DNA of 20,000 bases from Elsinoe ampelina (GCA_010093995.1 ML992508.1:1078548-1098547), one strand, 5' to 3'. Counted from the stretch's first letter, positions 1 to 20,000 are shown. The notes: a model not told the origin generated them from the letters alone. Made by a program: numbers and translations.

Positions 1-10
1 ATGTTATCAG

Positions 11-122
11 GTTCCTTGCACTGGTTTGCATCATGGGGGACGATAACCCGATGGAGAGAAAAGCGATTATCGACTACAATGTCAATATTTTCAGGGATGC
101 GCTGGCAAAGGTCTGGTCGTAA
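11..122 (+). CDS. GTR2: Last exon of Rag GTPase Gtr2/RagC-D homolog (gene begins upstream of the window)
   Basis: After ...ttatcag (acceptor at 9-10) the frame from 12 reads FLALVCIMGDDNPMERKAIIDYNVNIFRDALAKVWS-stop (TAA 120-122). This resembles the RagC/Gtr2 C-terminus as I recall it (FLALVCI...ERKGLIDYN..CFR.A). Not in the ORF track. Confidence 0.8.
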
Positions 123-405
123 TAGATAAGAACGCGAACATGTACAGTAGCTCTAGATACCATGATACCAAATTTTTTTCTTCTCCATACTGAGGCCCAT
201 TCAAATCATCCCTATCCATCAGAGCTCGCGCGTAAAAGCTTCAGCGGGACCCGCGGTAAAGGGTGTTTTAAACGTCGATCCCGGAAGCTAGCATTCCGAC
301 CAATGTCGATCAATTGAATACGCAGCATGTTCCTATAAACTGTCCTTACTGTAAAATCATCCTCGAGACAATCCTACTTAGCTCTGCATCTCCCATTCCC
401 CAGAT

Positions 406-1199
406 ATGGCAGAAGTCCGCCGCCGCAACCCCCCAAGCAAATCATTAGACGACCGCATCCGAGAAGAAGACGACAACAAACCCATCAGCTCCTCCATCTC
501 CTTCCTCGACATCCTCCGTATCCTAGGCGGCATCGCTCTCCTCAACTCCGCCCTCTCCTACTACATCACAAAGGACCCGGTCTTCTGGGGCTCACGACCA
601 TGGTGGACCCAACCCACCCAAGTCCAACGATGGATTGTACCTTCCCTCCTCCCCCCATGTCCCCCCCTCCCCCTACGCACCCCCGCTAACCTCCCCAGAA
701 CGGCCCCCTCCGCCTCACCGACGCCCAACTCGCCGCCTACGACGGCACAGACCCCACCAAACCCATCTACCTCGCCCTCAACGGCACCATCTACGACGTG
801 ACCGTCGGACGCTCCTACTACGGCCCGGGCGGCATGTACGGCTTCTTCTCCGGCAAAGACGCCAGCCGAGCCTTCATCACGGGGTGTTTCGACACGGACC
901 TCACGCCCGACACGCGCGGCATCGAGGAGATGTACATCCCGCTTGACGACGAGGAGGCGGATCAGAAGCTGAGTAAAGGGGAGTTGAAGACGAGGAGGGA
1001 GAGGGAGACGAGGGTCGCGAGGGAGAAGGTCAGGCAGGGGCTGGAGGGGTGGGCGAAGGTTTTTAGGGGGGATACGGGGAAGAAGTATTTCAAGGTTGGG
1101 GAGGTGAGGAGGGAGGAAGGGTGGTTGGAGAAGCTGCCGAAGAGGGAACTGTGTGAGAAGGCAAAGGGCCAGAGGAAGAAGAGGAAGGTGCAGGGCTAG
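406..1199 (+). CDS. Cytochrome b5-like heme/steroid-binding domain protein (MAPR family) with N-terminal membrane anchor, ~243 aa
   Basis: Exons 406-636 and 699-1199. Intron 637-698 is gtacct...gctaac...ccag. The spliced product has a hydrophobic segment (FLDILRILGGIALLNSALSYYI), then LTDAQLAAYDGTDPTKPIYLALNGTIYDVTVGRSYYGPGGMYGFFSGKDASRAFITGCF, the MAPR/cyt-b5-like signature. Confidence 0.92.
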
Positions 1200-1520
1200 G
1201 GAGCAGGTGAATGGGGATGGGATATGGTTGGTAAATGAACATGATTTGGATTGTTTGATGGGTGTAAGTGATGGGTCACATTCACTGATGCTGGTGCTGC
1301 TCGAGGCGTGAGATCCGCTCTGTACACCGAGGACATGGAATGTGCCGCAAGCGATCTGACAAAGACTGATATTTGCGATGCACGGAATTCGGTCTCTCCA
1401 CGTGGCTTCAATGATCCTCGTTCGCGCTGTGCTACGAGATGTATCCGTAAATCATCAAACGCCAATGAGGCCGTTCCTCAGATGTCCCCATGCTCATCCA
1501 CCCGGATCATATCGATGACT

Positions 1521-2033
1521 CTAGTCCGAACCACCAACAGCCCTTGCTGTAAACTCGTTAGCACCGTGTCCAGTCTCGCCGCGAAATTTCGTGATCCATA
1601 CTGTAGATGCTGCCCCGAGCGTGTCCGACAACCTTCTTGATCTGTCCTCTCTCCTCCAAGTCGGCAATTGCCCTTCTGGCGAGCGAGCCATTGATCTTTA
1701 GACGATCGACGAGGACGGCGACGGTGATGAGACGGTATGACTGGACATCCTTCTGGAGCTTGTCGTTGGTGGCCTTGTCGAGAACGACGGCGTGCTGGGC
1801 CTTGTCCTTGACTGTCGGAAAATGTTAGTACCATCATCTTCGCATTGTAGCGCAACACCAGCAGGTCTATTCTCGAACGCAAAGTCGTTGCTGGTGGTGT
1901 GCTGAAGAGTGTGCCACATACCCTTGCCCTTGGACCACTTCTTCTTTTGCTTCTTGCCTCCGGTCGCAGCGGGAGCCTAACATTGTCAGAAAGCGTCCAG
2001 TGTGATCTCGATATCCGGTTGAACTCGTACCAT
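1521..2033 (-). CDS. RPS25: 40S ribosomal protein S25 (eS25), 97 aa, 4 exons
   Basis: Exons 2033-2031 (ATG only), 1976-1922, 1811-1602, 1546-1521. All introns are GT..AG with CTAAC/CTGAC branch sites. Product: MAPAATGGKKQKKKWSKGKVKDKAQHAVVLDKATNDKLQKDVQSYRLITVAVLVDRLKINGSLARRAIADLEERGQIKKVVGHARGSIYTRAVGGSD. Confidence 0.97.
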
Positions 2034-3172
2034 GTTGTCTGATTGATGTGTGGTTGTCGTGTGGATGTCAGGATGTCGCCGCAGTAATTTGCATGAGGTG
2101 TGTGCGTGCGGGCAGCCAAGACTTTCTGACTAAGCAAAGTCGTTTTGAACAGAGATGCGTGGATTCTACGCGCAATGGTCATTGGACATGGTGTACAAAC
2201 CACCTTCTTCGCATGAATGGGAACGTTATAATCAATGCGATGCAGCAGGAGCTTTCTCTTCAAGACTATCAAGGCATGTTGTCCCGCCGCGTCTTGCGTA
2301 CTGATCACGATCGAGAGTAGGGACGATCTCAGAGCGTGGGATTGCTTCCTCCACGTGTTGCAGCTTTCGGGCGTAACTCGTTCACATGCTCGTCAATAGC
2401 TCATAATCGGTCCTACACCAGTTGCATTTTAGGCCTTCTATTCTGGCCGACTGAATTTTCACAAGTGGGAAGGATTTCACAGCTTTTGCGTTTCATGTAC
2501 AACAGCTAGAAGCCCTGATATAGACTCTCGGACCGCCGTTGATGTGATGCGGATCGATGAACGTCCCTTGCATGTGTGTACCTCAATGATCGACAACCTA
2601 TCTGCATATCAGTCAACAACACTCGTCGACCTCGACGACTACCTCATCTCACCATGAAGAATATGAATACCATTGGTCAAGAAGTGACTATTGGCGTGAT
2701 CTCCGATGGATCCAAAGGCACAGCACAGACGGAAGCCACTCGCAGCCGCTTCCGAGCTTCTCATGATCGCCCGCCTGTCAGCCCCCGGTACAGCCAGTCG
2801 CAGTCGCAGCTGGCCAACGCGATTCCTCGAGGCATCGCAGAGCTCCGGTCTCTCAAAATGTAGTACAAGTCGCAGCTGCCTTCGTATTCCGTCAACCTGA
2901 AAGACTTGATCTTTTCTCTCGACCAATATTCGTGCTGGTACAGCATAACTATCGGCCCTCGCTCTACGTCCTTCCCCACTACCAACATCTTGCAATCTCG
3001 GCAGCCTTACCCCCCGGTGTCAGACCGACTTCTCTCGTTTGCGACTCGAATCCTACCGCGAAGAAAGGGCGCCTTGACAGCCATAATATCTAGTGTGACT
3101 ACACACGCGGAGGGAGTCTTCTCACCACAAGAGTCAGCATACGCTGAGTGTCGCGCATATGGTTGAGGCAGT

Positions 3173-4635
3173 ATGAAGGACAGAATGCCGCAGATGCTGC
3201 GAAGAGCGCAAAGATACACAAGTCTGGACGGTATAGCAGCGGAGAAAGATACGGTTGCTGTAAGGCCCTGTAAAGAACTTGCGACTCGAGCTTCCTTGGC
3301 TGACTTGCACAGTGGTATTGGAGAGTGATTGCTGGAATCGCATCATGGCTGTTGGTGGGAGGGTAAGTGCTTCCAAAAAAGCAAGACTGTGCATGAGCTC
3401 TGACCTTTGCTAGCTTCCTCATGCTTCCCGCGACCTTTGACACGTCGGACGACTTCAAGTTTAGCAAGACCGTCTTAACGATCTTAAGCATCACCTTCGC
3501 CGCTGCTGGGGTATGCCTGACCGCTGTACTCTTGTTAGTAGTGCGCAATTGGCAATTCCAAGCCGATGCTATACTGTTCCCGGCGTTCTCTTCGTGTCTG
3601 GTCGGTCTATTGACGGCACTGTACTCATTCTTAGTCCATCGTCGGTACACATGGAATCTTGCTGGGATCCTTACCACCGCCTTCTCGGCAGGTTTGACAA
3701 TCACGTACGGCGTCCTGCTCTTCATCACACAGAGACGAGTCGCTGCGTGTAGAGGTCTCGCCAAACCGCAGCACATCCCTCTGCGATCGCATACCTCATA
3801 CGAAGACGCTCGAACCATTTACGAGCCTTCTATTCAGTCGACAGTCCCGCCAATGCCGCAAAGTCCGCCTGCTCCAACGGAACCACTTCCTGACAATCGG
3901 ACGCGAGAGCAGTCCTTCTACAATAATTATTTGTCGAATATGTATCCAATGTTGCGAACGGATTCACGAGCAGCTCCACGCACTCCTGCCCCACCAACGG
4001 CAGGACCTCAGACTCCAAATACTCCATGGGATGCTCAGTCTGTTGTCTCCGAGCGTCCCCCAGCTCCACCCATCAATCGTCCGCCTGTCGAAGCATCCAT
4101 GCTCACGCAGGAGGAATTGACACGGCAGCAAATGCTCATGCTGCTGTTGAACCGACCGGAGCCGGAACGACCCGTTGATCCTGCAGGACATCCTCTCCAG
4201 CCTGAGACCAGCTATCGTATAGACTGGAATGGAGGGGAGACACAAACCCCAATCGTTGGTCCAGGAGAGACTCTCAACACACCCCACCGCCAGATTCCAT
4301 CCACACCCATCATTTCGCCACCGTCGGCAACGTCACGATCAGGAGGCATTGATCAGATCACTCCGAGCCGGCCCCAGCACACGCACACGAGAAGCACGTC
4401 CAGCCAGAAAGCCCTCGAAGCTCTCACCGGCGGTCGTGTCCACATACCACATGGAGTACCACCGCCGTCGTACGAGCAACACTGGGATGGCGTCATGCGG
4501 ACTGCGGCAGATATTCCACAAGATCGCCTGCATCCGGCATTTCGAGAGAGTCGCTTCATGCGAACAGGTGGAGCAAGGGAGGAGCGTAGAAGGGAGATTG
4601 AACGAGGAAGCACTCCCACGCATGAGCAGGAGTAA
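3173..4635 (+). CDS. Uncharacterised fungal membrane protein (~452 aa): about four N-terminal TM helices and a long Pro/Ser/Thr-rich disordered tail
   Basis: The 404-aa ORF 3421-4635 extends upstream by two phase-compatible exons, 3173-3259 and 3313-3362. Introns are 3260-3312 (gtaagg..gctgac..cag) and 3363-3413 (gtaagt..ctgac..tag). This gives ...DTVAWYWRVIAGIASWLLVGGFLMLPATF followed by three more hydrophobic segments. Confidence 0.8.
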
Positions 4636-5245
4636 CGGGCGACAAAGTTTTGTTTTTGGACTTTGACACGACTGCATCAGTGGCGCTTAATATCCACCAT
4701 TTGCGAACAGATCTCTTGGGGAACGACATCATGACGGACGGTGTTTGGGCTTCTTTCGACCGAATCGCAGGTTGTCTGGTGTAGATAGCATGTGATTGCA
4801 ATTATATTTACTCTACACTTCATACCTGGACCAATAATCGTCCTGCAAAAGGAACACTAACGGGTCCAGGCTGCGAAAGGCACATAGAACCCCTACGCAC
4901 TGATCCCACATTGGGAAGAGATTTCACACATTTCACATGCCTCACATTCTTTCCACATCACACGCCAGGAGGACCTCTTCTAACACGTGGGCAATCTCAG
5001 ATCTGAAGACTTTTGCTTTCGGATTCCACCTCACATCTTTCCCGCAGTACTCGTTTCACCCGGTTTCCACATTGCTAACATCGACAGCTCCCCACATGGC
5101 TTGCCTGGGGAGGGTCTTTACACTGCAGTACATGGGCGTACAATACAATGAAAGAGATGCAATCACGGACCCACGTCAACAGAAGACGAGATTACAAACC
5201 CCTCTCCCGCGCGGCAAGAGGCATATTTATCTATGATACATCTAG

Positions 5246-5347
5246 CCACCCCTCTCACTCCTTTCTCCTTTCTCCTTTCCCTACCCTTCCCCTCTACCCC
5301 CTCGCCCCACCATCCTCTCCTCTCCCTTTCGCTTCCCTCACTCCCCT
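5246..5347. repeat. Low-complexity polypyrimidine/polypurine tract just 3' of the MAS1 stop codon
   Basis: About 100 nt almost entirely C/T on the + strand (ctcctttctcctttctcctttccctacccttcccctctaccccc...), i.e. G/A-rich in the MAS1 mRNA sense. Confidence 0.7.
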
Positions 5348-5350
5348 GAC

Positions 5351-6896
5351 CTAAGAAATCATCCTCGTCATATCCCCCCGGATCCTCGCATAATCCAACA
5401 ACCCCTCAATCTGCCCCACCGCCGAGATGGCAATGTCACGATCCCACAACTTCCTCTGGGCAAAATCCTGCACGTCCTTCGCCGAGATGGCACCGACCAC
5501 ACGCTCCACCTCCTCTGGGCTGAGGCGGCGGCCTGTCGTGATGGTTTGGCGGCCAATGTCCTCTGCCACGGCAGTGGTGCCGTCGAGGGAGAGCAGTAGC
5601 GAGGCCTTGAGTTGGGACTTGGCGCGCTCGACTTCGGAGTCGTTGACGGCGAAGGAGAGGCGGGACCACTCGCGGAGGGTGAAGTGGACGAGGTCGTCGA
5701 TGCGGGTGATGGCGTCGGTGACGAGGTAGATGCCCCAGAGACTGAGAGAGGGTTAGCAAAGTCACAAAGGGGGGAAGGAAAGAGGGGTCTTACCCGGTGT
5801 CGCTGTAGCTGGTGGAGAAGCTCATGAAGCTGTTGGCGAGCTTGTTCTCGTGGACGAAAGTGCTGAGCTTGCTGCCGAGATAAGGGGAGTTGCCCATGGC
5901 GCGGTCCCAGTTGCCGACGATGGCCTGGGCAACCAGAGCGGTGAAGTAGTCGTCGTCCTTCCATGAGACACCCTCAACTGCAATGGCGATGTTGGCGGTT
6001 GGGATGGTGTCGTCTCGGATACGGACTTCGGAGCCGACAAAGTCGGGCTTTGCCTTCTGAGCGGCGGCGATGGCTGCCTCGGTCGACGTTGGTGGTTGGT
6101 TGGGGACCTTGCCGAAGTACTTCTCTGCGAGCTGTACGAGCTGTTCGTGAGGAATGCCACCAGCACCGACCAGTACCATGCGGTCAGCAGTGTAGTTGGT
6201 CTTGATGTAGCTGGTCAAATCATCACGGGAGATGGACTGGATGTTCTCCTTGGGTCCAAGGATGGTGCGGCCGAGGGGCTGGTCCATGAAGGCAGTTGCG
6301 TGAAGGTGGTCAAAGACAACCTCCTCGAGCTGCTTGTCGACCTCCTCCTGCTCGCGGAGGATGACATCACGCTCGCGCTCGATGGCAGAGCCCTCGAGCT
6401 TGGAGTTTTGTAGAATATCGGCCAGGATGTCGACAGTGTTGGGAACATCAGAGTTGAAGGACTTGGCATAGTAGACGGTGTTCTCGCGGGAGGTGTAGGC
6501 GTTCAGGTGTCCGCCCATGTTCTCAATCTCAAGCTCCAATTGTGACTGCGACCTCTTTTGCGTTCCCTTGAAGGCCAAGTGCTCCAGAAAGTGCGCGGTG
6601 CCGTTTGTTCGGTCTGTTTCCGCACGGCTTCCAGCATCAATCCAAACACCTACAGTCGAGGTTTGCGCATAAGGTGAGTATTCGGAGGCAATCTACATCT
6701 CCATCAGCCATTGATACCACTATCCAGCATTTCGATGTCCTACCGTAAAGCCATTGCTCAACGTTGTGCTCTCCGTCTTCACTCCATGACTGACCGGAGT
6801 CGCAAGGCCCCTGGTCACCGGCGATCTGATGGCATTGAGAGCGAGTCGGTTGCGAGTAGAATTCCTCAGATTGAGGGCTAGCCGCCGGGAGGCCAT
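5351..6896 (-). CDS. MAS1: Mitochondrial processing peptidase beta subunit (M16 family), 480 aa, 3 exons
   Basis: Exons 6896-6744, 6692-5794, 5741-5351. Arg-rich, acid-free presequence MASRRLALNLRNSTRNRLALNAIRSP. TVGVWIDAGSRAETDRTNGTAHFLEHLAFKGT carries the inverted Zn motif HFLEH, followed by EIENMGGHLNAYTSRENTVYYAK. Confidence 0.96.
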
Positions 6897-7157
6897 GGCG
6901 ACAAGTTCTGAGGATAATGGTGGTTGAATAGCTGCTTGGAACAGAAATTGTGAGCGACGCCGGCGAGATTGACGATTTGCAGCAACAAGAAAGCTCGCTC
7001 TTTGGTCTTGGCAAATCGTTGTCCTTCTCGCGGCTCTTTCCGATCCGATCACGTCCAATCCCGAGGCTCGCATTACCCTCTTTGGAGACATCAGTTGCTC
7101 TGGCATGTCAACTGCACCTCTACCTCTCCACGACCTGCCGCTCCATCATCCTCGACA
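6897..7157. promoter_or_regulatory. Compact divergent (bidirectional) promoter region between MAS1 and SDH4
   Basis: Only 261 nt separate the two head-to-head ATGs (6896 on -, 7158 on +), so both promoters and 5' UTRs must lie here. Confidence 0.7.
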
Positions 7158-7871
7158 ATGGCATCAGCAATGCGCTCCTCCGCCTTTCGCCAGGCCTTCC
7201 TGGCTCAGCCCAGCAAATTCACAGCTCCTCTGCGCACCTCGTCGCGGTTATCCCAGCTCGCAACACCCGCATTCGCACGAGTAGCTGCTTTCCACGCCTC
7301 CCCTCGCCGCTCCATCCTGCCTCCTCTCCCACGTAAGCGGCCCCCATCAGTTGCTCCGCGGCCCTCGCCTGCTCGTTCTCGATCGCCACCACTAGCAATG
7401 CGTGCCTAACCTTGCCTCCCAGAGAAAATCATCGGCACAGTCAACGACCCGGCCCCTGTGCCCCCTGTGTCCCCCCAACATGGCAGCTACCACTGGACGA
7501 TGGAGCGCCTCATCTCGGCCGCGATTGTGCCCTTGACTGTGGCCCCCTTCGCGGCGGGGTCGCTCAACCCGGTGCTCGACTCGGTCTTTATTGCGACTAT
7601 CCTTGTGCACTCGCATATTGGTTTCCAGTACGTACATGAGGAGCCAGGATATATGATATTATATACAGGATGCTGGTGGGAGAGATGCAGTGCTAACGAC
7701 AATAGGTCCATCATCATCGACTACGTCCCGACGAAGCGGATGCCAAATGTAAGGAAGCTGTTCTGGTGGGCATTGAACCTAGCGACTGTAGTAGTGGGAA
7801 TTGGCTTCTACGAGTTTGAAACAAACGACGTAGGGTTGACAGAGGGCATCAAGAGGGTATGGAAGGCTTAG
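7158..7871 (+). CDS. SDH4: Succinate dehydrogenase small membrane-anchor subunit (SdhD/CybS), 181 aa, 3 exons
   Basis: Exons 7158-7332, 7423-7627, 7706-7871. Mitochondrial presequence, then ILPPLPQKIIGTVNDPAPVPPVSPQHGSYHWTMER...LVHSHIGFQSIIIDYVP...GFYEFETNDVGLTEGIKRVWKA, the CybS signatures including the heme His and quinone-site DY. Confidence 0.95.
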
Positions 7872-8092
7872 AGGGAGTGCTGTGGGTGTGTTATCTGTAT
7901 CATGGAGCGAGACACCAGCAGAAAGAGACAGAAATGTTTGTAGTACAAATTTTAGAAACATGAATTCGTCTGTCGTGGGTATTCCTTTCCCTTTCCCTTT
8001 CCCATTTGTCCAAAGGTACGTGACGCCTTGCTGAAAGTATTTTCATCTCGCCGTACCCATTTGCACTTGCGCCGTGCACCAGGTCTGGAGTC

Positions 8093-9962
8093 CTAAAACC
8101 AATAATCCTTCCCTGCCTCTGTGATATCAAATCGGCATCCCAACCTTATGCCTTTCTGCGCTAGAGCAGCTGTGTGGTCGTTCAATTGCTGCAGAATGAC
8201 CTCGCTAATGTGGGGGCCATCCTTCATCGTGTCTTTGACGTGCATAACTAGTACCCTCAGACCTTTGAGGGGAGGGTCCTGGTTGACCGGAGTGCTCACT
8301 GTGTTCGGCTGAGCACTGTTTATTTGACTTACCCCTTCGCTGAAACTCGTCTGGATCGGGATGGGTTTGTAACGGACGTAATCAGACCCCTGTCCTTCTG
8401 TTGCCGGCACGCTGGTGACCTGCGGCGTGGACCTCGGACTTGGAGTGTCTTGCAAGACGTCGTCAGGGACGCTACTCCGCCGGCCATATTGCAGTCCAAT
8501 GTTCCTCCCCACTAGACTGCGACTGCGCTTCTTGTCGAGGTAGTGCTCGGCATCTTGTGCGCCAGACAGACCATTCATTCTCTTCCGCTTGCGCATGGCT
8601 TTCTCGTTGGCACGTATAGCGCGCTCTTCTTTGACCATTTCGGCAAGGACCTGTAGCTCGGCGATCAAGTGACGGGGGGCTAAGTGTCCAAAGAGCACAG
8701 CATCGGCCTGAGTGTCAGCATAAGAGCACTCGACGAATATGCCCGTGAGGACGCCGGCGGCAATCTTTGGGGCCGCCTCGGCCCAGACACGGGCTGTTCG
8801 AGGAGCTACGGATATGCTGTCCGGCTCGACATCGCCGAACATGAGGATCTCGCGGTGAGAGGAGAGGTCGCGAATGAAGTAGGCGGTAGAGTCTACAGCG
8901 TGCATGTTAGGGTCTTGCTGGTATGGGTGCGACGTGATGGGTTGTGGCGGAGATGCATAAGATCCTGGCGTGCCGGGCATGTGGAGGTGCGAGAGTGACA
9001 TGTGTCGTTCTGTTGCTGTGTTGGAGGTGTAGTGTTTTGGCGTGCTCGCGTAGCCATTCGGGACATCCGACAGATTGGAGATTGAGCCTCGATGCGATTC
9101 GGTTGTGCCTGGTCGCATGCATTTGCCATGGGAGATCTTGAAGGCTTTGGTGGAAAGCCCTTCACAGACTTCGATATATCCTCGTCCTTCCCCTTCGCCT
9201 ACCATCACATCGCCCCCTTCCTTGAGACGCTGGAACGTCACGAACCCTACTCCACCATCTTCGTCGGTCAAATTGGGCCAAATGACATCGTTGAAAATGT
9301 GCCGTTTGATTGCATCTACTGTGAATGGAAGTGCTGCGAGGGTCTTTGGCCGTGAGGTGGCGTGGAAAGCCGCAGTATTGATTGCGAAGCCGGACAGATG
9401 ATCAAGATGTGGATGGCTAATCAGATACGCAGCGACATGACTCCTAACAATGTGCGCTGCATTGGCTCTTGCGGAAGCATGAGGCAGCGGAACTCCGGCA
9501 AAGGGTCCATTCTCGAGCACGATTGGCTCTAGCTTGGGTGGTGGAGGCGGTCTGGAGAGCGGCGATGATGGAGGTGAAGAATTTGGCCCCACCGGGTTCT
9601 GCGGCGACAATGGCTGATTATGGAAGAGGTTACCATCCGAGTCGGCCCGTATTTGGTCTCGCGATATAGCAGGGAGATGTTGTTCCAGGATTCTTGTGAT
9701 GGCGGCAAGATGGGTACCTGCATCCACTGCAAGTATTGAACCTCGTACCCAGCCAGATGCCGTCGACCGTACTAAGAAACCGCTGACATTGTCTTCGCTT
9801 GGACCACCTCCGGAGCCCTGTAGGTGTCAGCTCCTGGTACGCATAGCTTTGGCGAAGGAGCCTGCGAAGTGTACTTACCAGACAAATCACCTGTATCGCT
9901 GCATGGTGGCTGTGTTCCGATGCACCGTAGCTGACGGGAGTTGGCAGGTCCTGAGAGGTCAT
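8093..9962 (-). CDS. PDE1: Low-affinity class II 3',5'-cyclic nucleotide phosphodiesterase, ~602 aa, 2 exons
   Basis: Exons 9962-9879 and 9817-8093. Intron 9878-9818 is gtaagt..gctgac..cag. Motifs: IQVICLGSGGGPSEDNVSGFLV, LAVDAG, YLISHPHLDHLSG (HxHxDH), HIFNDVIWPNL, FGDVEPDS, IFVECSY...LFGHLAP. Confidence 0.94.
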
Positions 9963-10492
9963 GGAGCCTCCGGGCAGGTCCAATGCCTTGAAATGCGATC
10001 GTGTCTCTCGATCCTTGTCCCGTCTCTTTGCGCCTAGCGGTATGTCCTCGTTTGTTTCCTCGACCAATGTTTCCTTGACGTCGGTCCGAGCGTTGCTGGG
10101 TCAAATGCGTCTGATTCAGGTGTCGTTTGCGGATTTGCAGGTAATCCGCGCTGGAGGATTGAACGTCCAGGTTGCGCTACAAGCTGTCTGTTCCTGCTAT
10201 GAAAGGCGGTACAGGACAAAGTCGTGAATCATCAATGATGGATGAAAGAAAGAAAGAGAAGGACAGTTGAAAGGCAAACATGCATAAAATTAAGCTACCG
10301 CTGCAACAGTAGGTGGTTGTTGTACACGGACGCAGTAAAATAAAGTAGCTTCCTCTTGCCTGCAGCTATGTCTCAGGCCTAGATCCCAGGATCGGTAACG
10401 GGTGGGATGCTGTTGTAGCTGGCAAATCGGATCGAGAGACGTGTGTTTTATTCAGAGAATTACAATAACCGATTTATCTACTGTACGTGCGC

Positions 10493-10499
10493 TGACTCA
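10493..10499. promoter_or_regulatory. TGACTCA (Gcn4/CpcA/AP-1-type bZIP consensus) upstream of PDE1 at the edge of the RIP block
   Basis: Exact TGACTCA in gcTGACTCAt, about 530 nt upstream of the PDE1 ATG. A single heptamer can occur by chance. Confidence 0.25.
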
Positions 10500-10920
10500 T
10501 CAGTACCAGTTCTTTAGTACTAGAGAAGCTGTACTAGCCTTCTATTATAACACTCCCCCTCTAGTATAGATTGTTAAAGCTAGAGAACTATCCTATTATA
10601 TATAAGTAAAGTAATTAGGTTATTACTTTATCTCTTTATAATTACTTATAATTGTTAGTGCTAGCTAATCACTAGTAAGAATTTACTATTAGATTAGCTT
10701 ATAACAGCTAGTAGCAATAGTAACTATTAATAATAGCTAGGTAGCTATTATCTCTATTGTTCTATGTAAATAGATTAGCTTATAAATCTTAATAAGGGAG
10801 ATATAAGTATCTAGCTAACTTCTTTATAGTTTCTCTTTCCTTTATTATACTTATAATAATAGCTTACTATTTTATATTCTACTTTTATACCTTCTATAGT
10901 ATAAACTAACTCTTTACACT

Positions 10921-12092
10921 ATAAGTGCTACTACTTAGCTAGGTATTAGTAGTATTACTACTAGTGCTAGAGTACTAGGTAGTCCGCTAGGTAGTAGAGG
11001 TAGAGGACGTAATTTTCCTTAGTCTAGAGATTTAACTAGTTCTAAAATAAAAGAGTAGAGTACTATAAGGGCTATTGCTAGACTAAATACTCTTAGTATA
11101 TTATCCCTTATATAGTCTAAAAAGTAGTCCTAACTTATTATAGTTAGGACTAAATAGGCTCTTACTTAGGAGCTTACTATAAGCATTTAGAACGACCTTA
11201 CTAGGCTTAGGGACCTTAGATACTATAACTATAACTCGCTATACTTAGTCTTTAAGTCCTTTACTATTTAGGCTTTTAGTGCTAGTAACCTAGATCTTTT
11301 AGTCTTAGCTTCTATCTAGGTAAAGAACCTAACTAAGACAATTAACTTAACTAGTTCTCTAACTTATATAGCTACCTTAATAGGAACTAGTGCTACTAGA
11401 AGGGTTATTTACTATAGTACTAACTACTATACTAAGTATTAGAGCTCTACTCTAAGTAATAATAATAGCCTTAGTAGAGCTAGTAAGTTTAAGTAGTATA
11501 TTATAGTCTCTAGCTAGTTCTATAGTACCTATACTAACTATACCTATAGTCTATAGTATAAGACTTACTCTCTTATCTAGTATACTCTAACCCTAAGGCC
11601 TCTAAAGGAAACTCTAAGTAGTTTAAGGCCTATTACCTAATCTATTCTATATAGCCTAATACATTTACTAACTAAGCTTTTAAGGTCTTTCTCTTTTAGT
11701 AGTACTTTGCCTTAAAGGTTCTTACTAAGGCCTACTTCTTCTTATAGTAGGCCTACTAATGTTATTAATAAGTCCTTAGTCTATCCTAACTTACGCTACT
11801 TTATTATAGTCTCTATAGACTTTATTAATCTAGTAAATCCTATATAGGCTAAGCTCTAGGCCCTATAGGTTATTATAGCTAGGTTTACTATAAGTATAGC
11901 TAAGATTATATCTAGTAAGAGAGCTAGCCTTCTAATTATTTACACCTTTACTATATAAGGTTTAGCTAGCGGTATAGGTTATATAAGAAATATATCTAGT
12001 TCTTCCCTAAGAAACGAAAGGTTAAAGGCTAACTCTAATACATTAATAGGTAGTAGATCTTATACTAGCTCTAAGAGCTTTAAGAGGATAAG
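10921..12092 (+). pseudogene. RIP-degenerate ORF of unknown identity, apparently interrupted by the LTR element
   Basis: Frame 1 from ATA(ATG?) at 10921 de-RIPs to plausible protein (MSATTQPGIGG...GGPPGGGGGGRNFPQ...) whose stops are TAG/TAA. It appears to resume in frame after the 3' LTR at ~19391. No recognisable domain. Confidence 0.35.
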
Positions 12093-12290
12093 TGTAAGAA
12101 CTAACGTAGTAAGTATACTACGCTAGCTTATCTTAGAGATACTATTCCCCGTAGGAGAATAAAATACTCTTCGCTTATATAATAGATAGAGTAGAGATTA
12201 GTTTTACGATAATTAAAAGTATACTAGTATAACACCTATTCTACTTCTATATACTTGTCTTTCTAGCTTTAATATTCTACCTTCGTTATA
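12093..12290 (+). repeat. 5' LTR (198 bp)
   Basis: Starts TGTAAG and ends TTATA (TTACA after reversing RIP). Aligns without gaps to 19188-19385 with 18 mismatches by manual count. Confidence 0.95.
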
Positions 12291-12293
12291 ATT

Positions 12294-12302
12294 CTAATCT
12301 CT
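12294..12302 (+). other. Candidate self-priming primer-binding site
   Basis: CTAATCTCT, 3 nt after the 5' LTR, is the exact reverse complement of AGAGATTAG inside the LTR (12193-12201; also 19288-19296). No TGG-type tRNA PBS is evident. Confidence 0.65.
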
Positions 12303-12336
12303 CTTATATTCTATCGAATAGAGCTATATAGATAAG

Positions 12337-15300
12337 ATAGTACCCCGTACTTAGCGCTAGCGAAACGACTAACTACCGCTAGAGTAGTACTAGTATAGAT
12401 AACTCCCTAATAGCTTAGCTATTAGCGAGACATTTACTAAATTAGCTATAACTCTAGAGATAACTTCTATTAAAGATCGCTAGGCTAGGGAAGGGCTAGC
12501 GCTAAGGCTACACCGCGCTAATATAGCTCCTATAGGAAGTATAGCTAACACAGGAAATAATACTATATATAAAGCGCTTTATACTTATATCGCTTAGCTC
12601 GAGAATATACTTAGTAGTCGCTCCCTAGTTATAGCGCTAGTACTACGTAGTTGTTTCGACGACGTATAACCCGACGATATTTGCCTAATAAACCTATAAA
12701 TTGCAAGAGAGTATATACTAAACTTACGCTACCCCGAGGCCTTAGAGTTTACTATTATAGTAAGAGTTAAGGAATTTATACGTATGTATAATAATGTCTT
12801 TAAGATAGTGCCGAATATCTACTTTAAAGAAGTTACTTAGTGCTATATAGCTACTAGCTACTTAAAAGGTTAGCTTAGCTATAATTAGGACTCGTATACT
12901 AAGAGCGCTAGCGTTATACCCTTATAGAGCCTAATATAGTTCTAGCTTTAGAACTAAGCCTAGAGTTCTAAAAACTATAGTAATAGCTACGTAGTAAAGT
13001 TCTTTACGTCGCGCTAGCGTAGAGAATAGTCGATTACTAATTTCTATATGTTCCTCGATAGTTACGAGTTCTATATTAAGATAGTACTACTTCTAGACGA
13101 CGTCTACTATATATAGCTTATCGCCTATACTACGCTAGAGCTACGCTCGGAAGTACTCTATTAGGGGAACCTATCCCTAATTAAGGTAGAACTTCTAGTA
13201 TATCTATCCTGTTTAGAGTAGAACCTACTAGGCTACTTTAACTCTATATAGGGGTAGTATAAGTATAACGCTAGAGAGAAGACTAATACTTTTGCTAAAA
13301 GACCTTACTATAACGAAGACTATAAGAGCTAAAAGGACTAGTAGAGTAGCGCTAATACTACCCCTATAGCTCCTCGACCTAGCGCTACTTACTCTTATAA
13401 TATCTATAAGAGCCTAGACTATTAGGCGCCGAACTGTCCCTAGAAGGACTCTTTAAAACGGATAGTGTCCTTACGTTTACTAATCCTAAGCGGCTCTAGC
13501 GTAATATAGAGTATATACCAAATTCGCGCCGATATTATAGTTAACCTACCTAAAGGCCCTATCGAAGAGGTAGCTCTAATAGATAGTAGCGCTAATAGTA
13601 ACTTTATTAGCTAGTATTTTACTATACGCTATTATATCGCTATCGACCCCCTAGTAGTATACTAAGTATATAGCTTAGATAAACACGAATTAACTACCTA
13701 CGGATATACTAAGTTAGCCTTTACTATTAAGAATAGTAAAGGAATAACGTAGGCGTCGCGCTAGTAGTTTAAAAGCGTTAATATAACTAGTTATAATCTT
13801 GTATTAGGCCTACTATAGCTATTGTCCTACGACTCTAAGATTTAGTAGAGCGCTAGTATATAGAGGCATTATACTAGTACTATATAGGTGTCGATTCTAG
13901 ATATACTCTCCTTCTCCTAGGAGCTAAATTAGCCTAACGCCTAGCTCTACCTAGTATATATATACTAGGACAAACCTAGCGTTCCGACTCTACTATACTA
14001 GCTTAATAACTACGTAGACGTTTTTAATAAGAGTATAGCAACAGCGCTACTAGGTAACGATTTTACTTACTCTATCGATATTAAAGAGAGGAAATATCTA
14101 CTCTAGGGACCTATCTACTCCCTCGGTAAGAAGGAGCTCTAGGTACTTTAAGAGTATATAGACGACAGCTTAGTAACGAGTCGACTCTAGTATAGCACTA
14201 GCTCTACGGAGTCTCCTATCCTATTCGTTCCTAAGAAGAATAGTTCGCTACGCCTATATATTAACTATTGTAGGCTAAATAATATTACTATTAAGAACTA
14301 TTACCCCTTACCCCTAATTACTAAGATACTTAATTATATTAAGAGCGTATGCTTATTTAGTAAGCTAGACCTTATAGATACCTACTATAGGGTATATATC
14401 TAGCGTAGTAATAAATAGAAGATAGTGTTCCGCTATTACTATAGCTACTTCGAATATACTATTATATCTTTTAGCCTTACTAACGCTCTAGCTACGTTCT
14501 AGACTTATATACATTAGTACTTAAGTAGCTTAGTAGACTACTACTATATTATATACCTAGACGATATTCTAATCTACGCCGGCGACAAGTAAGAGTATTA
14601 CTAGGCTATTAGGAGCGTACTAGACTACCTATGTAAGAATAGCCTCTATATAAAACTAAAGAAGTATATCTTTAAGGTAATATAGGTAGTATTTCTAAGC
14701 TATATTATTAGTAGTAATAGCGTCGTAATAGAGTAGCCCTAGGTATAAGCTATTACTAACTAGCCTACCCCTACTAGCCTTAAGGAGTTATAAACCTTTC
14801 TTAGATTTACTAATTTTTACTATCGATTTATTAAGAGCTTCTCCTACGTAGCGCTACTACTAACTATACTTATGTAAGAGTTAGTCTAAGAGAAGTAAGT
14901 AGGCCTATTTCTATAGAGTAACGACGTAGTATAGGCCTTCGATAGGCTTAAAGCTACCTTTACATAAGCGCCTATACTACACTACTTTTTATTAGGTAAG
15001 CCTCTCTAGCTCGAGACTAACGCTTTAGATTTTGTACTCTCTAGAGTAATCTTCTAGTAAAATAAAGGCGACACTCCTACGTAATACTAGTACCCTATAG
15101 CGTTCTAGTTCTAGAAGCTATAAGATATAGAACTAAACTACACTACCTACGATAAAGAGCTTCTCGCTATTATAGAAGTAGCGTAGTACTAGCGCTAGTA
15201 CCTACTTAGCGCTACTACTCTAATTAAAGTCCTCTCTAACTATAATAACCTTAGGTACTTCCTAACTACTAAGAAGCTTTTATAGCGCTAGGCCCGCTAC

Positions 15301-17466
15301 GCTAAGGTACTAGCGTAGTTCGATATTATTATTTAGTACTATAGTAGGAAGACTAACCTAGCTAATAGCCTATTACGTAGGCCTAACTACTATAAGTATA
15401 AAGAAGATATATAGGAAGAGCGCTATATATTAGTCCCTCTCTTAGAGTAAGCGTTATAAATACGAAGTAAAGGAGTTATACCTATATCTATTATAGATAA
15501 GAAACCTAAGGCTAGGAGGGCCTAGAAAGATAGTAATAAAGCTAGTATAGCTTATATACCTTAAACTACTCCTTAACGTAACGCGCTTATATAATTCTAG
15601 TATACTTCTAGAATAGCGCCTATAAGTCTACCTATTACCTTAGAAGCGCTATAGCTATACTAAAAAGAGTTAGAGTCTCTAGAGTAAGAAGAGTAGCGCC
15701 TAAAGGACACTTACGTAGACTCTCCTCTAAGCCTAACTAGTAACGTCGAATCGGAATAATATACGCCCGCTCTAGTATCCTAGGACGTTCTACTACTCGT
15801 ATAAGAGACGCTAGAGAGCTAAGGGCAAGAAGAAAGCGTAACGCCTACGTAACTCTAGGATACTCTTAGTAGAGAGCCTACTATAATTTTAGACTAGAGT
15901 TAGTAGATTATATATCTCTACGCTACGTAAGTACTAGTAAATAAGACTATATATACTTCTTCTACTCCTACGTTACTCTAGGACCTTATCTACGTAGTAT
16001 AGTAAAGGGACACCTTTACTTATAGTAAGGAATAGAAACTTCTAAAAGAGAAGACCTTAACTAGTAATAGTACTACCCTAGAGTAGAGCCTATCTAGTAA
16101 TAGCTTACTCCGTAACAGGAGTAGAGTATATATCCTAGAAGAAGCTACCTTAAGAGTAGAGCTTATATAGTATAACTATAACAACCCCTTAGAAGGTTAC
16201 TTTAGCTATATAAAGACCTACCTTAATATAAGGAGGAAGTACTAGTAGCTAGGTATATCCGTTGCTATAAAAGCGTATATTAAGCGCTACGATAGCTACT
16301 AAAGGTATAAGGTAATATAGTATAAGCCTTATAGTCTCCTATAACCCTTACTAATTCCGCCTATACTTAAGGCCTTATAATACTAGTCGCTTAATTTTAT
16401 TACTAGCTTACCCCTAGTAGAGCTCTAGCCTAGCGTCGTTATAGACGTAATTATCGTATATATCTATCGCTTATCTAAGTTTAGTATCTATACGCCGACG
16501 TTAACTAAGCTTAATACTAGGGACTTTACTAATCTATTTAAAATAGACATTATAACGTTATTCGGAACGCTAAAGACGCTAGTCTTAGATAGAGAGTCTA
16601 TCTTTATAAGCAAATTCTAGAGTACGCTATACTAGCGCTAGAAGGCGTAATATAAGCTTAGTACTAGTTTCTACCTATAGATAGACAGCTAAACTAAAAG
16701 GTAAAACTAGACGCTAGAGTAGTACCTACGCTACTTTATCGACTATTACTAGACGGACTAGCTATACTAGGTTAAGTAGGCGTAATTCGTGCATAATAAT
16801 ACGTATTAAGCGTTACTATACGCTACGCTAGCGTAGTTCTTATTTACGTAGGAGATACGCCTATCTAATAATATTAAGGCGCTAGCGCCGCCTAGCTATA
16901 CGCTAGCGTATAACTCGTTAGTTGACAACTAAGTATAATCTATTACTAAAACGTATATAGAGCTCGCCTAACACCTACGTAAAGTATAGAAAGACTAAGC
17001 GCTAGCCTATAATAGAGGTTAATAAGTAAAAGTCTTCTATAATAGCGACAAGGTTATACTTAGTACTAAGAACCTTCGTAGCGCTAGACCTAGCTATAAG
17101 CTATTAGCTAAGTATATTAGCCCGTTTATAATTGTATAACGAATTAGTACGTAGGCGTATAAGCTATACTTACTAGATAAAATAAAGCTAATCTATAACG
17201 TCTTTAACGTTGCGCTACTAGAGCTATATAGGCGTAGTAAGGGCATACGCCTACCGCCCCTAGAGGTAGAAGGGTAGGAAGAATACATTATTAAACGCAT
17301 CCTTAGTAAGAGCTATACTAGCACCCTAAAGGCGCTATACTACCTAGTAAAGTAGTAGGGTTACCCTATAGAAGAAAGTATATAAGAGCTAGTAAAAAAC
17401 CTTATAAACGCTAAGGAATTACTATATAAATATAAGGTAGCTTAGCATAAGTATAGCGCTAGCTAA
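12337..17466 (+). pseudogene. RIP-inactivated gag-pol polyprotein in one continuous frame (~1710 codons)
   Basis: De-RIPed frame-1 motifs: zinc knuckle CNICKSPDHWAPNC (13396-13437); protease ALIDSGANSNFIS (~13573-13611) and DLVLGLPWL; RT LFVPKKDGSLRLC, YPLP, MPFGLTNAPATFQ and an intact YLDD (14554-14565); RNase H LETDASD, YDKELLAI, ADGLSRRPD (~15010-15390); integrase HHCC (~16177-16299), SLDFITGLP, VSDRG, FHPQTDGQTERQNQTLEQYLR, GPF (~17119); chromodomain EYIIERIL...YLVKWQGYPIEESTWEPVENL (17281-17403). End position is approximate. Confidence 0.93.
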
Positions 17467-17658
17467 ATACTCTAGATATACTTAGGATTAATAAGTTAAA
17501 GGTATAAAATTTAAAGTAAAGAGTACCTAGGCGTAGCGCTAGGTTAGCTTAGAGTATTATTAGCTTACGTAGAGAGAACACTAGCGTAGTAAAAACTATA
17601 GAATTATACCGAAGTAAAGGGGGCGTAGCGTAGGCGTAGCGCCCTAGCTCTCCCTACC

Positions 17659-18529
17659 TTAACTATCTATATTATCTACCTTAGTCTTATCCTTATTATT
17701 CTCCTTAACACCGTTAATATGCCTAGTTAGCGCCCTCGTAGCATTATTAAGCGCCTACGTAGTAGCGGCTTACTTATTCTTAGTAACTACCTATAGAAAA
17801 GTTAGTATAGCTTAGGCGTTATAGAGGCGTACTTCTAGACTTATAACATTAGCTAAAGCCTTAAGTATAAAGTTAGTATTACTAATTATACCTAGGCGTA
17901 GCGCCTTTACTAGCTTCTTAGTATCGACTTTAGAGGTAGTAGGCGTAGCGATAGTACTATTATAGTGTAAAGAGGTCGTACTATTATTATTACTCTTATT
18001 AACTACCTTACCTTTACTCTTAGCGTTAGACTTACTCTATATATACTTAGCGCTAGCCTTCTTATATATATAGTTAGTATAGGTAGTAATCTAGCGCTTT
18101 AGAAGAATAATGTTCTTCTTAGGAGTAGTAGTATCGTTATAGAGTAGTATATATATAGTAAAGTATTTGTCCTAGAGCTTCTTAGTAGTAACTTAATCCT
18201 TAGAGTTAAGCTTAGTAGGCTACTAAGGTTAGTATAAAGTAGGTATAGCGTAGGTATAGAGTATACCTAGTAGTAGTGTTTATTACTATAACTATAATAA
18301 TTATAGTAGGTAGCCTTAGCCTTAGTAATCTAGTAGAGAGAATCCTTAATAGAGAGTACACTATCTTCGAGCTAGAGGTACTTATCGATAGTAATAGTGT
18401 AGTATAAGTATAGTATAGAGTACTAGTTCTAGTTAGTAAAATCGCTCTTATAAGGTCTATAAAAGGTTAGCGCTAGCGTAGTATAAGTGCTATATATAAT
18501 ACTTACTCCTTAGGAATTTTAGAGGCTAT
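17659..18529 (-). pseudogene. Spliced antisense accessory gene inside the retrotransposon (4 exons, ~239 aa), divergent Zn2Cys6-like Cys cluster plus acidic tail, RIP-inactivated
   Basis: Exons 18529-18507, 18456-18267, 18219-17845, 17790-17659. Introns 18506-18457 (gtaagt..gctaac..tag), 18266-18220 (gtatac..actaac..tag) and 17844-17791 (ataagt, RIPed gtaagt..actaac..tag) are 47-54 nt long and phase-compatible (2,0,0). Confidence 0.72.
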
Positions 18530-19171
18530 AGTTATTAAAGTACGTAAGTATATAGGAGGTAAGCTAGTATAGAGCTAGAATAATAAAGGGAAAAAAAATT
18601 ACTACGTAGGTACTATACTAGGTTAGTAAATAAATAACTAAATAGATAAGCTCGATAGCTAGATCTATAGTAGCGTAGGCTTAGTATATATACTAAGCCT
18701 CTCCTACTAGCCCTTAGGCTAGTAAGACCTAGTCTATACTATATAGTACCTAAAATAGGTTACTAGTATAGTATTAGACCTACGTAAGTATAGAGCTAGT
18801 ATTAAGTAGAATACTTACGCGAAGGAAGTATTATAAAGGAGAAAAGAAGAAGAGAAGGAGAAGAGAAGGATATATATCTAGCTCTAAGCTAAGACTAATC
18901 TAGAGAATAATAGGTAGTAGTATATAATAATAGGTAGATCCTTATATATAAAGATAATAACGTAAGAGCGCTATATTCTATATATAAAGAATCTGTGCTA
19001 TTGCTACTATATCTAGTATATAAAGAATAATACTAGCTAGTATAAGCGCGCCATACGTGCGGAGAGTACGCTACACCTAAGGGGCGCTAGCGAGATACTC
19101 TTTTCTAGTTTTCTCCTATACTAGGTTTTCTAAGTTTTATTAAGGCTTATAGGCGCAAGGGCGTGCCCCCT

Positions 19172-19183
19172 AAAGGGGGAGAA
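19172..19183 (+). other. Polypurine tract (plus-strand primer)
   Basis: AAAGGGGGAGAA ending 4 nt before the 3' LTR. It overlaps a small CCCCC-TAAA-GGGGG inverted repeat (19166-19179). Confidence 0.85.
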
Positions 19184-19187
19184 TAAT

Positions 19188-19385
19188 TATAAGAACTAAC
19201 GTAGTAAGTACGCTATACTAGCTTATCTTAGAGATACTATTCCCTATAGGAGAATAAAATACTCTTCGCTTATATAATAGATAGAGTAGAGATTAGTCTT
19301 ATAATAATCGAGAGTATACTAGTATAATACCTATTCTACTTCTATATACTTGTCTTCCTAGCTCTAATATTCTACCTTCGTTACT
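19188..19385 (+). repeat. 3' LTR (198 bp)
   Basis: Starts TATAAG (RIPed TGTAAG) and ends TTACT. Direct repeat of 12093-12290. Confidence 0.95.
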
Positions 19386-20000
19386 CTAAGGAAGTAATTA
19401 GTAGAGTATAATAAGTAGTTAGTAGTATAGAATAGTAGTTAGTATTAAGTAGTAGATGTAGCTTAGGTATAAGTAGCTAGTAATAGAGTTATAATAGCTT
19501 TTCCTTTTTCTCTTTTTAATAATAAAGTAATAGACATTACTTTAGGCTTCTAATAAATAAGATAGCTTAATAAGTAGTAGTAGCATAAATAACATACTTA
19601 AAATAATAATATATATAAAATTTAAATAAGTATATAGTATAGATATACACTAAGTAATTAGCCTTTACTAATTAATTAAGAATCTTGTTAGGAGACTTAG
19701 GCTTTATAAGTGCATTAGCTAATTACTAAGTTATATTAATATACTTAAGCTTAATTACTCTAAGTTTATACTACTCTCTATAGTAATAATTCCTTAAATT
19801 AATATACTTAGATCTCCTTAAATTAGTATAATCTCTTATAAGTTTAATAGCTAACTTATTATTAATAAAGACTATAGTTAGGCTAAGGTAAATATTAGCA
19901 AGTAGCCTAAGTTTAATAATAAGGTTTCTTAACTAATTAATCTCTCTATAGGTCTTAGTAAGGGCAAGGTATTTAGCCTTAGTACTTAATAATATAATAA

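Follow-up and report, generated by a model that had tools for sequence, protein, structure and literature searches.

A probable antisense gene relic with a possible former cysteine motif in a RIP-mutated Ty3/gypsy chromovirus of Elsinoe ampelina

The window analysed here, a 20,000-nt stretch of Elsinoe ampelina DNA, consists of two very different parts. Positions 1–10300 are ordinary GC-rich DNA (GC 0.51–0.60, TpA/ApT 0.39–0.84), while from ~10400 to the end of the window the sequence bears an extreme RIP signature (GC 0.28–0.38, TpA/ApT 1.9–2.75, (CpA+TpG)/(ApC+GpT) 0.04–0.18). The border between the unmutated GC-rich DNA and the AT-rich RIP-mutated block is sharp, falling at 10300–10400, and gives the window an isochore-like structure. 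Within the RIP-mutated part lies a Ty3/gypsy chromovirus. Its two LTRs form a 205-nt direct repeat with 91% identity: the 5' LTR at 12084–12288, whose true start is probably the TG at ~12093, and the 3' LTR at 19179–19383, whose true start is probably the TA (from TG) at 19188. The pol gene is recognized on the plus strand at 14227–17229, RIP-mutated and read with X at stops, through Pfam matches in the frame of 10303: RVT_1 (14227–14676), RNase H-like (14932–15321), a weak Integrase_H2C2 (16147–16311), and SH3_Tf2-1 (17047–17229), followed by a chromodomain-like end that reaches ~17490. A polypurine tract, AAAGGGGGAGAA, is found at 19172–19183 on the plus strand, immediately 5' of the 3' LTR, and similar tracts occur in two related elements, L001 and L012. 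About 300 nt upstream of this true polypurine tract, a purine-rich run with repeats of AAAGAAGA and AGAGAAGGAGA occupies 18835–18870 on the same strand. The DNA outside the LTR element (10401–12083 and 19384–20000) is also RIP-mutated, has no Pfam match in any frame, and probably represents other dead repeats; the outer parts share a weak inverted similarity (11026–11584 against 19836–19273, 59%).

The element is mutated nearly to saturation by RIP and, judged by depth ratio, belongs to a family of about 75 copies. Contigs from two public runs of one sample, placed at 80% likeness, yielded approximately a thousand pieces of this family with a total depth of ~15000, and it is the ratio of this total to the ~150–220 of single pieces that suggests the copy number. 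Differences between copies are nearly all transitions. At 17737–8, 17806–7, 18368–9, 18820–1, and 19069–70, one copy has CG where others often have TA, which indicates that CpG is converted to TpA in two steps and makes CGY (Arg) a further possible source of TAY codons. Single copies also retain different unmutated sites: on the minus strand of the window, in a frame other than that of the tyrosine codons discussed below, a TGT with its unmutated TpG survives at 18358–18360, and ~98% of the other copies have TAT there.

Between the end of pol and the polypurine tract lies 1.65 kb of sequence, and it is here that the original prediction placed an antisense gene whose tyrosine-rich stretch would be a zinc cluster masked by RIP. 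Because RIP produces only transitions, it leaves the purine or pyrimidine state of each position unchanged, and purine content by codon position can thus be used as a coding test in sequence of this kind. On the minus strand, 17662–18222 has purine fractions of 0.73/0.50/0.39 in the frame of codon 18063 (chi2 45.5, p = 1.3e-10); both halves of this region are separately periodic (p ~5e-6 each), and the signal exceeds that of every 560-nt window lying wholly inside pol. In the frame of the tyrosine codons, 18267–18456 gives 0.51/0.62/0.27 (p = 2.4e-4). No purine periodicity was detected in 17500–17661, 18223–18266, or 18457–19178 (p 0.16–0.93). In a sliding view, the periodicity stops at an antisense TAA (17661–17659), and the coding phase switches between ~18190 and 18275, where a 44-nt antisense intron candidate (18266–18223) sits. 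The test itself is blind to strand. We infer that the minus strand is the coding one from the edges of the signal, from the protein-like antisense reading as compared with a Leu/Ile/Ser-rich sense reading, and from the related elements described below. The tyrosine stretch very probably belongs to this antisense gene, as had been predicted.

The relic runs from ~18497 to 17659 on the strand opposite to pol, in the interval between pol and the 3' LTR. Its predicted stop is the TAA at 17659–17661, and its last exon (17662–18222, minus strand) comprises a Lys-rich stretch (18063–18007), a heptad-like part, and a K/N/D-rich tail (17706–17662), possibly acidic originally. The antisense Lys-rich stretch is formed by a 27-nt tandem duplication that stays in frame (18019–18077; 2.2 copies, 81% matches). 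Both the Lys-rich stretch and the tail had been proposed to follow the tyrosines, and both exist, but they lie in another frame and are joined to the tyrosine stretch only via the putative 44-nt intron (18223–18266, minus strand; GTATAC...TACTAAC...TAG). Intron-like motifs are common by chance (34 of a loose class and three of a strict class in 2 x 9.6 kb), so the motif alone is no evidence for an intron. Use of this one is suggested by the phase switch and by an intron at the same offset after the last cysteine in L012. The upstream exon (18267–18497, minus strand, frame of codon 18422) contains the tyrosine codons and is periodic over 18267–18456; its upper end is uncertain, and the ATA at 18497 could be a masked ATG. 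With 10 stops per 200 codons, its frame is the least interrupted of all frames and windows, but since every TAA or TAG may be a product of RIP, stop counts cannot separate frames. A 50-nt intron-like motif (GTAAGT...CTAAC...TAG) on the minus strand at 18457–18506 is one of the three strict matches, and no coding signal was detected by purine periodicity in the upstream frame that it implies. A 30-nt GT...AG stretch at 18359–18330 was rejected as an intron, being too short.

It could be supposed that there is no antisense gene at all, with the periodicity coming from the sense frame or from repeats and the spacer being non-coding or debris of another element. Besides the strand-blindness of the test and the presence of small tandem repeats, such a supposition can call on a purine/pyrimidine dicodon model trained on pol, a weak model that mixes up a frame and its mirror frame, which slightly favours the sense phase in 17500–18099 (17.3 vs 11.2). 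We nevertheless regard it as highly improbable, given that the sense frames are Leu/Ile/Ser-rich and have neither start nor stop at the edges of the signal, that the end of the signal coincides exactly with the antisense stop and its change of phase with an antisense GT...AG, and that tandem repeats cover only ~100 of the 561 nt of the last-exon region.

Within the antisense gene, the question is what the tyrosine codons once were. In the minus-strand frame of 18422, the six codons singled out by the original prediction are as described and share one frame: TAC at 18410, 18401, 18335, and 18275, and TAT at 18305 and 18296, with a spacing of x2, x21, x9, x2, x6. They are six of 13 tyrosine codons within the 52 codons from 18422 to 18267, the remainder being 18422, 18404, 18380, 18308, 18299, 18290, and 18272. 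In all six frames of the RIP-mutated part (10401–20000), tyrosine accounts for 9.4% and cysteine for 0.65% of codons, and although 13 tyrosines in 52 codons falls in the top 0.65% of windows, eight separate places reach this density, mostly in frames unable to code. The same six frames hold 18 Gal4-like Tyr/Cys patterns with one long loop, the class that the original prediction accepted, and 65–80 occurrences of the "second half" pattern alone. The strict Gal4 spacing occurs three times, always elsewhere (+17979, −19645, −11011) and in frames unlikely to be coding. The exact spacing of the six codons is rare in residue shuffles (mean 0.02), but it was defined after the sequence had been viewed, and its rarity is therefore no test. 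Comparable tyrosine patterns recur by chance, so that taken by itself the pattern is no proof.

Part of the stretch is moreover repetitive: codons 18410, 18404, and 18401 lie within a 5-nt tandem repeat (18388–18418, 5.8 copies), and the KAKA stretch is a 6-nt repeat. The first pair of the original prediction, 18410/18401, thus sits in a simple repeat, 21 residues away from the other codons, and finds no support. An alternative and weak "first half" is formed by Tyr 18410, 18401, and 18380 (18378–18412, minus strand), with x2 and x6 spacing and a lysine before the third codon, and here 23 residues separate Tyr 18380 from 18308. The strongest candidates for former cysteines are Tyr 18335, 18308, 18299, and 18275 (18273–18337, minus strand), whose x8, x2, x7 spacing is that of C3–C6 in a Gal4-like cluster. 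Tyrosine patterns with this spacing occur eight times in the six frames of 10401–20000, and this is the only one followed, after two codons, by a GT (at 18266); codon-block shuffles give 0.15 matches to the pattern plus GT per whole search space and ~0.01–0.04 for the antisense spacer alone. The canonical positions of C1 and C2 in this frame are GAT (18365) and CTC (18356), and RIP could not have produced either of them from TGY. This frame therefore lacks the strict six-cysteine Gal4 spacing, and what survives of the Gal4-type cluster originally proposed is the spacing of C3–C6.

Masking of cysteine as tyrosine, on which the proposal depended, is plainly seen in pol of the same element. The window pol was aligned with 40 intact chromovirus pols, and columns with one residue in at least 90% of sequences were compared. 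All six conserved cysteine columns read tyrosine in the window, as do 11 of 13 histidine columns; tryptophan columns have become stops in 10 of 13 cases and glutamine columns in 10 of 10, and tyrosine columns stay tyrosine in 16 of 17. Read in the other direction, a window tyrosine at a conserved column was formerly cysteine in only 6 of 34 cases (about one in five) and formerly tyrosine or histidine in 27 of 34. Other copies of the family give a more direct view of single codons. Plus-strand position 18298 is C in 14852 of 15074 depth of other copies in run X1 (~98%), so that nearly all of them have TGT (Cys) at the minus-strand codon 18299. It is the sole tyrosine codon of the stretch revealed as cysteine in the family among the 40 listed of the 166 variant places, and among these same 40 places none of the other 12 tyrosine codons has a G or C variant. 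The comparison with less mutated copies, suggested earlier as a check for TGY, thus found none of the six chosen codons among those places and brought out one that had not been chosen. Codon 18045, a last-exon tyrosine, reads CAT in 56% of the other copies' depth, an example of histidine origin.

These observations bear on an alternative in which the antisense gene is present and its tyrosine codons never encoded a zinc cluster, being instead a mix of true tyrosines, former histidines, and products of simple repeats. The spacing match to relatives would then be chance, and 18299 would be a lone cysteine. The predominance of former tyrosine and histidine in the pol control and the CAT at 18045 fit this alternative well, as do the frequency of loose, half, and strict patterns, the 5-nt repeat in part of the stretch, and the lack of both a canonical first cysteine pair and a profile signal. 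It accounts poorly for the cysteine at the middle codon 18299 in the family, for the one pattern of eight in which x8-x2-x7 is followed two codons on by GT and which lies only at this place, for a phase signature like that of the cluster regions of intact genes, and for the layout shared with the nearest relative, L012. We consider this alternative rather unlikely, although it deserves more weight than the absence of a gene.

The intact relatives are informative in this respect. Searching with the RT/RNase H part gave 1967 chromovirus pols, about 40% identical, and from an alignment of 40 of them 79 loci were fetched from metagenome contigs. The strict Gal4 spacing is found 14 times in 12 of the 79 loci, always antisense to pol and mostly directly behind it. 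In the 43 loci examined for it, the first-half motif C-x2-C-x6-C behind pol occurs 33 times antisense and three times sense, which is a further argument against a spacer devoid of an antisense gene; Gal4-like antisense genes thus occupy the same place in intact related elements. Eleven single-exon antisense proteins (166–223 aa) can be aligned, with all six cysteines invariant. Six of 10 intact antisense proteins match Pfam Zn_clus below the cut-off (10–17 bits vs 21), and the profile of the 11 proteins gives weak matches among solved structures to LAC9 (E 0.014), Pho7, LEU3, GAL4, PUT3, and HAP1. An AlphaFold model of an intact antisense protein (pLDDT 74.6) has a small cluster followed by a 59-residue helix (residues 68–126), and Gal4-type domains make up its top 11 Foldseek matches, all with E ≥ 1. 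In a protein atlas, the L019 protein falls among unnamed ascomycete clusters of 90–210 members, which is a lead only. The purine signature of the tyrosine exon, 0.51/0.62/0.27, resembles that of cluster regions in these intact genes (for example, 0.48/0.60/0.19 in L019).

Other layouts exist among the relatives. L022 (5296–5247, minus strand) and L076 (4287–4239, minus strand) have a canonical 49–50-nt intron between C3 and C4, 4–6 codons past C3, and in them the cluster is succeeded by a Lys-rich part, a part resembling a coiled coil, and an acidic tail, the order of parts proposed for the window. A third type of antisense cluster with an 11-residue C3–C4 loop (C-x2-C-x6-C-x11-C-x2-C-x6-C) was observed in L051, L052, and L069 (~13688–13590, 4216–4118, and 6157–6059, respectively, minus strand), which belong to a separate chromovirus clade. 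Behind the retrotransposon of L005, a fragment at 6541–7056 (minus strand) matches the end of PF13843 (DDE_Tnp_1_7, E 1e-8), and it is probably a neighbouring element.

None of the loci is close to the window element: pol identity is 30–35%, even after simulated RIP of the relative. A FastTree analysis of 49 loci and the window assigns the window, which has a long branch, to a seven-member clade (support 98); within it, L012 is the sister (support 84). The single-exon cluster genes and the L022 type fall in other clades. Three members of the window clade, L001, L004, and L031, have short spacers of ~70–380 nt, too short for such a gene, a point in favour of the reading without one. L012 has 2.3 kb between pol and its polypurine tract, and this spacer contains what appears to be an antisense gene of three exons, with two canonical introns (47 and 51 nt), an acidic end, and modest exon periodicity. 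Its last four cysteines, C-x8-C-x2-C-x7-C, are followed by two codons and then GT, which is the layout of Tyr 18335/18308/18299/18275 in the window, as compared after the tree had pointed to L012 and with an L012 gene model that is itself predicted. The x8, x2, x7 spacing is also that of C3–C6 in L019 and L020. The L012 gene model has no Pfam match above curated cut-offs, and its exon A has no usable protein-atlas match. Simulated RIP of L012 raised the pol score against the window from 923 to 1011, and the antisense exons were still unalignable with those of the window (p 0.13–0.99), apart from the four positions.

The relatives also correct the register of the motif. Of the six codons proposed as former cysteines, 18335 and 18275 fit the relatives' spacing, and 18305 and 18296 are each off by one codon; the middle pair is better placed at 18308/18299, where the spacing agrees and where 18299 is TGT in the family. 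A complete Gal4 cluster could still be assembled in this stretch with C1 at 18410, C2 at 18401, C3 at 18380, C4 at 18308, C5 at 18299, and C6 at 18275. This assembly needs either a 23-residue C3–C4 loop or an in-frame 45-nt intron (18359–18315) that would leave a loop of eight, and removing the 45 nt gives the spacing of L019. The first half then fits x2 and x6 with a lysine before C3, and the introns of L022 and L076, 49–50 nt long and 4–6 codons after C3, provide a precedent at C3–C4. However, the donor of the proposed intron is poor (GTACTC) and its acceptor is AAG, the first-half tyrosine codons belong to the 5-nt tandem repeat, and the long-loop pattern has five occurrences across the six frames of 10401–20000. 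The model was also fitted post hoc with many free choices, and we judge a full cluster improbable.

Similarity searches with the window sequence were uniformly negative. Pfam searches of the six frames of 17500–19178 with E up to 10 found no family, a test that is weakened by RIP damage, and the original expectation of a match to PF00172 or a related fold was not borne out by Pfam or homology searches of the window. With the last exon, a word-based protein search found no match and HMMER found no hits among 1.84 billion representatives. The six spacer frames gave only noise in tblastn against the 79 loci (best E 0.08, on the wrong strand), and tblastn of the window with the antisense exons of L022 and L076 likewise gave noise, the sole match on the expected strand pairing EKASRK... 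with KKASAK... (E = 18). A match of KAKAT-C to L076 was discounted, since the KAKA stretch comes from a 6-nt repeat. RIP-aware profile alignment placed the tyrosine-codon frame at ranks 48 and 60 among 246 windows; this alignment, which always chose the most favourable pre-RIP codon, was too permissive (noise 31 ± 7 bits). The integrase region of pol, searched at E 1e-10, gave only three distant matches, two of them named plant proteins, with a cut-off that was too strict, and a viral-contig scan with the RIP-mutated pol returned patterns that were Tyr/Asn-rich RIP artefacts, with nothing confirmed. In sum, neither protein databases nor the antisense proteins of the 79 loci yielded a significant match to the relic.

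Taken together, we favour, by somewhat more than even chances, a dead antisense accessory gene with a former cysteine motif at 18335/18308/18299/18275 in this Ty3/gypsy chromovirus. Such a gene would have lain opposite gag-pol, between pol and the polypurine tract, running from ~18500 to the stop at 17659–17661 with one short intron (18266–18223). Before RIP, its product would most likely have been a small nuclear-type protein in which a cysteine motif was followed by a Lys-rich stretch, then by a helical part resembling a coiled coil, and finally by an acidic tail. Four positions of the motif, C-x8-C-x2-C-x7-C, would be traceable today as tyrosines 18335, 18308, 18299, and 18275; with 18299 a cysteine in the family, the other three would have been cysteines by analogy with the spacing in relatives. 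From the intact relatives it may be supposed that the protein bound zinc and DNA as a Gal4-type dimer and acted on the element's own or host promoters. RIP would then have killed the gene, leaving the window copy dead and presumably with nothing expressed now.

This result explains a 1.65-kb stretch of a dead retrotransposon and illustrates that purine/pyrimidine periodicity survives RIP, giving frames and exon edges where translation and homology fail. What is added here is the map of frame and exons from this RIP-invariant periodicity and the corrected cysteine register. As the intact related elements show, a gene in reverse orientation that codes for a Gal4-like protein is present in many fungal Gypsy elements. 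More tentatively, fungal chromoviruses as a group may encode a small antisense Gal4-like zinc-cluster coiled-coil DNA-binding protein, the window family being one RIP-killed lineage; this broader view is possible, but we would not yet lean towards it. Under it, there might be at least four layouts: a single exon, a C3–C4 intron, an 11-residue loop, and the intron after C6 of L012 and the window. If it were true, LTR transcription or host genes could be under the control of a sequence-specific factor carried by the transposon, and such a factor could also have fed the large fungal Zn2Cys6 repertoire.

Among known protein families, the closest comparison is with Gal4-type proteins that combine PF00172 with a coiled-coil helix, such as GAL4, LAC9, PUT3, HAP1, and Pho7. 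The intact relatives share the exact cysteine spacing and the long helix that follows it, whereas the window keeps the spacing of the last four cysteines, as tyrosines, and has no canonical first pair and no match to the family. Host Zn2Cys6 factors carry a large regulatory domain. In contrast, the proteins of the relatives are small (~170–260 residues), encoded by transposons, and without such a domain. With respect to extra genes in LTR retrotransposons, we know of no cysteine cluster in the additional or antisense ORFs of plant elements. For plant lineages, extra ORFs, in part antisense, are reported from the interval separating pol and the 3' LTR (PMC7264820; Retand, PMC11963269), a location similar to that of the window gene. 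Among the papers listed by one full-text literature search, none was found on an antisense Gal4-like gene in fungal Gypsy elements. In the literature, brtn is cited as an additional antisense gene of Boty-like (BcGypsy1) Ty3/gypsy elements in Botrytis cinerea (PMC8365987, PMC4227169), and like the window gene it is an extra gene opposite gag-pol within a fungal Gypsy chromovirus. The window copy differs in being dead from RIP, and the likeness to brtn is one of description rather than sequence. On these accounts, antisense extra genes in fungal Gypsy elements are already known through brtn, and the window is a further, poorly preserved case.
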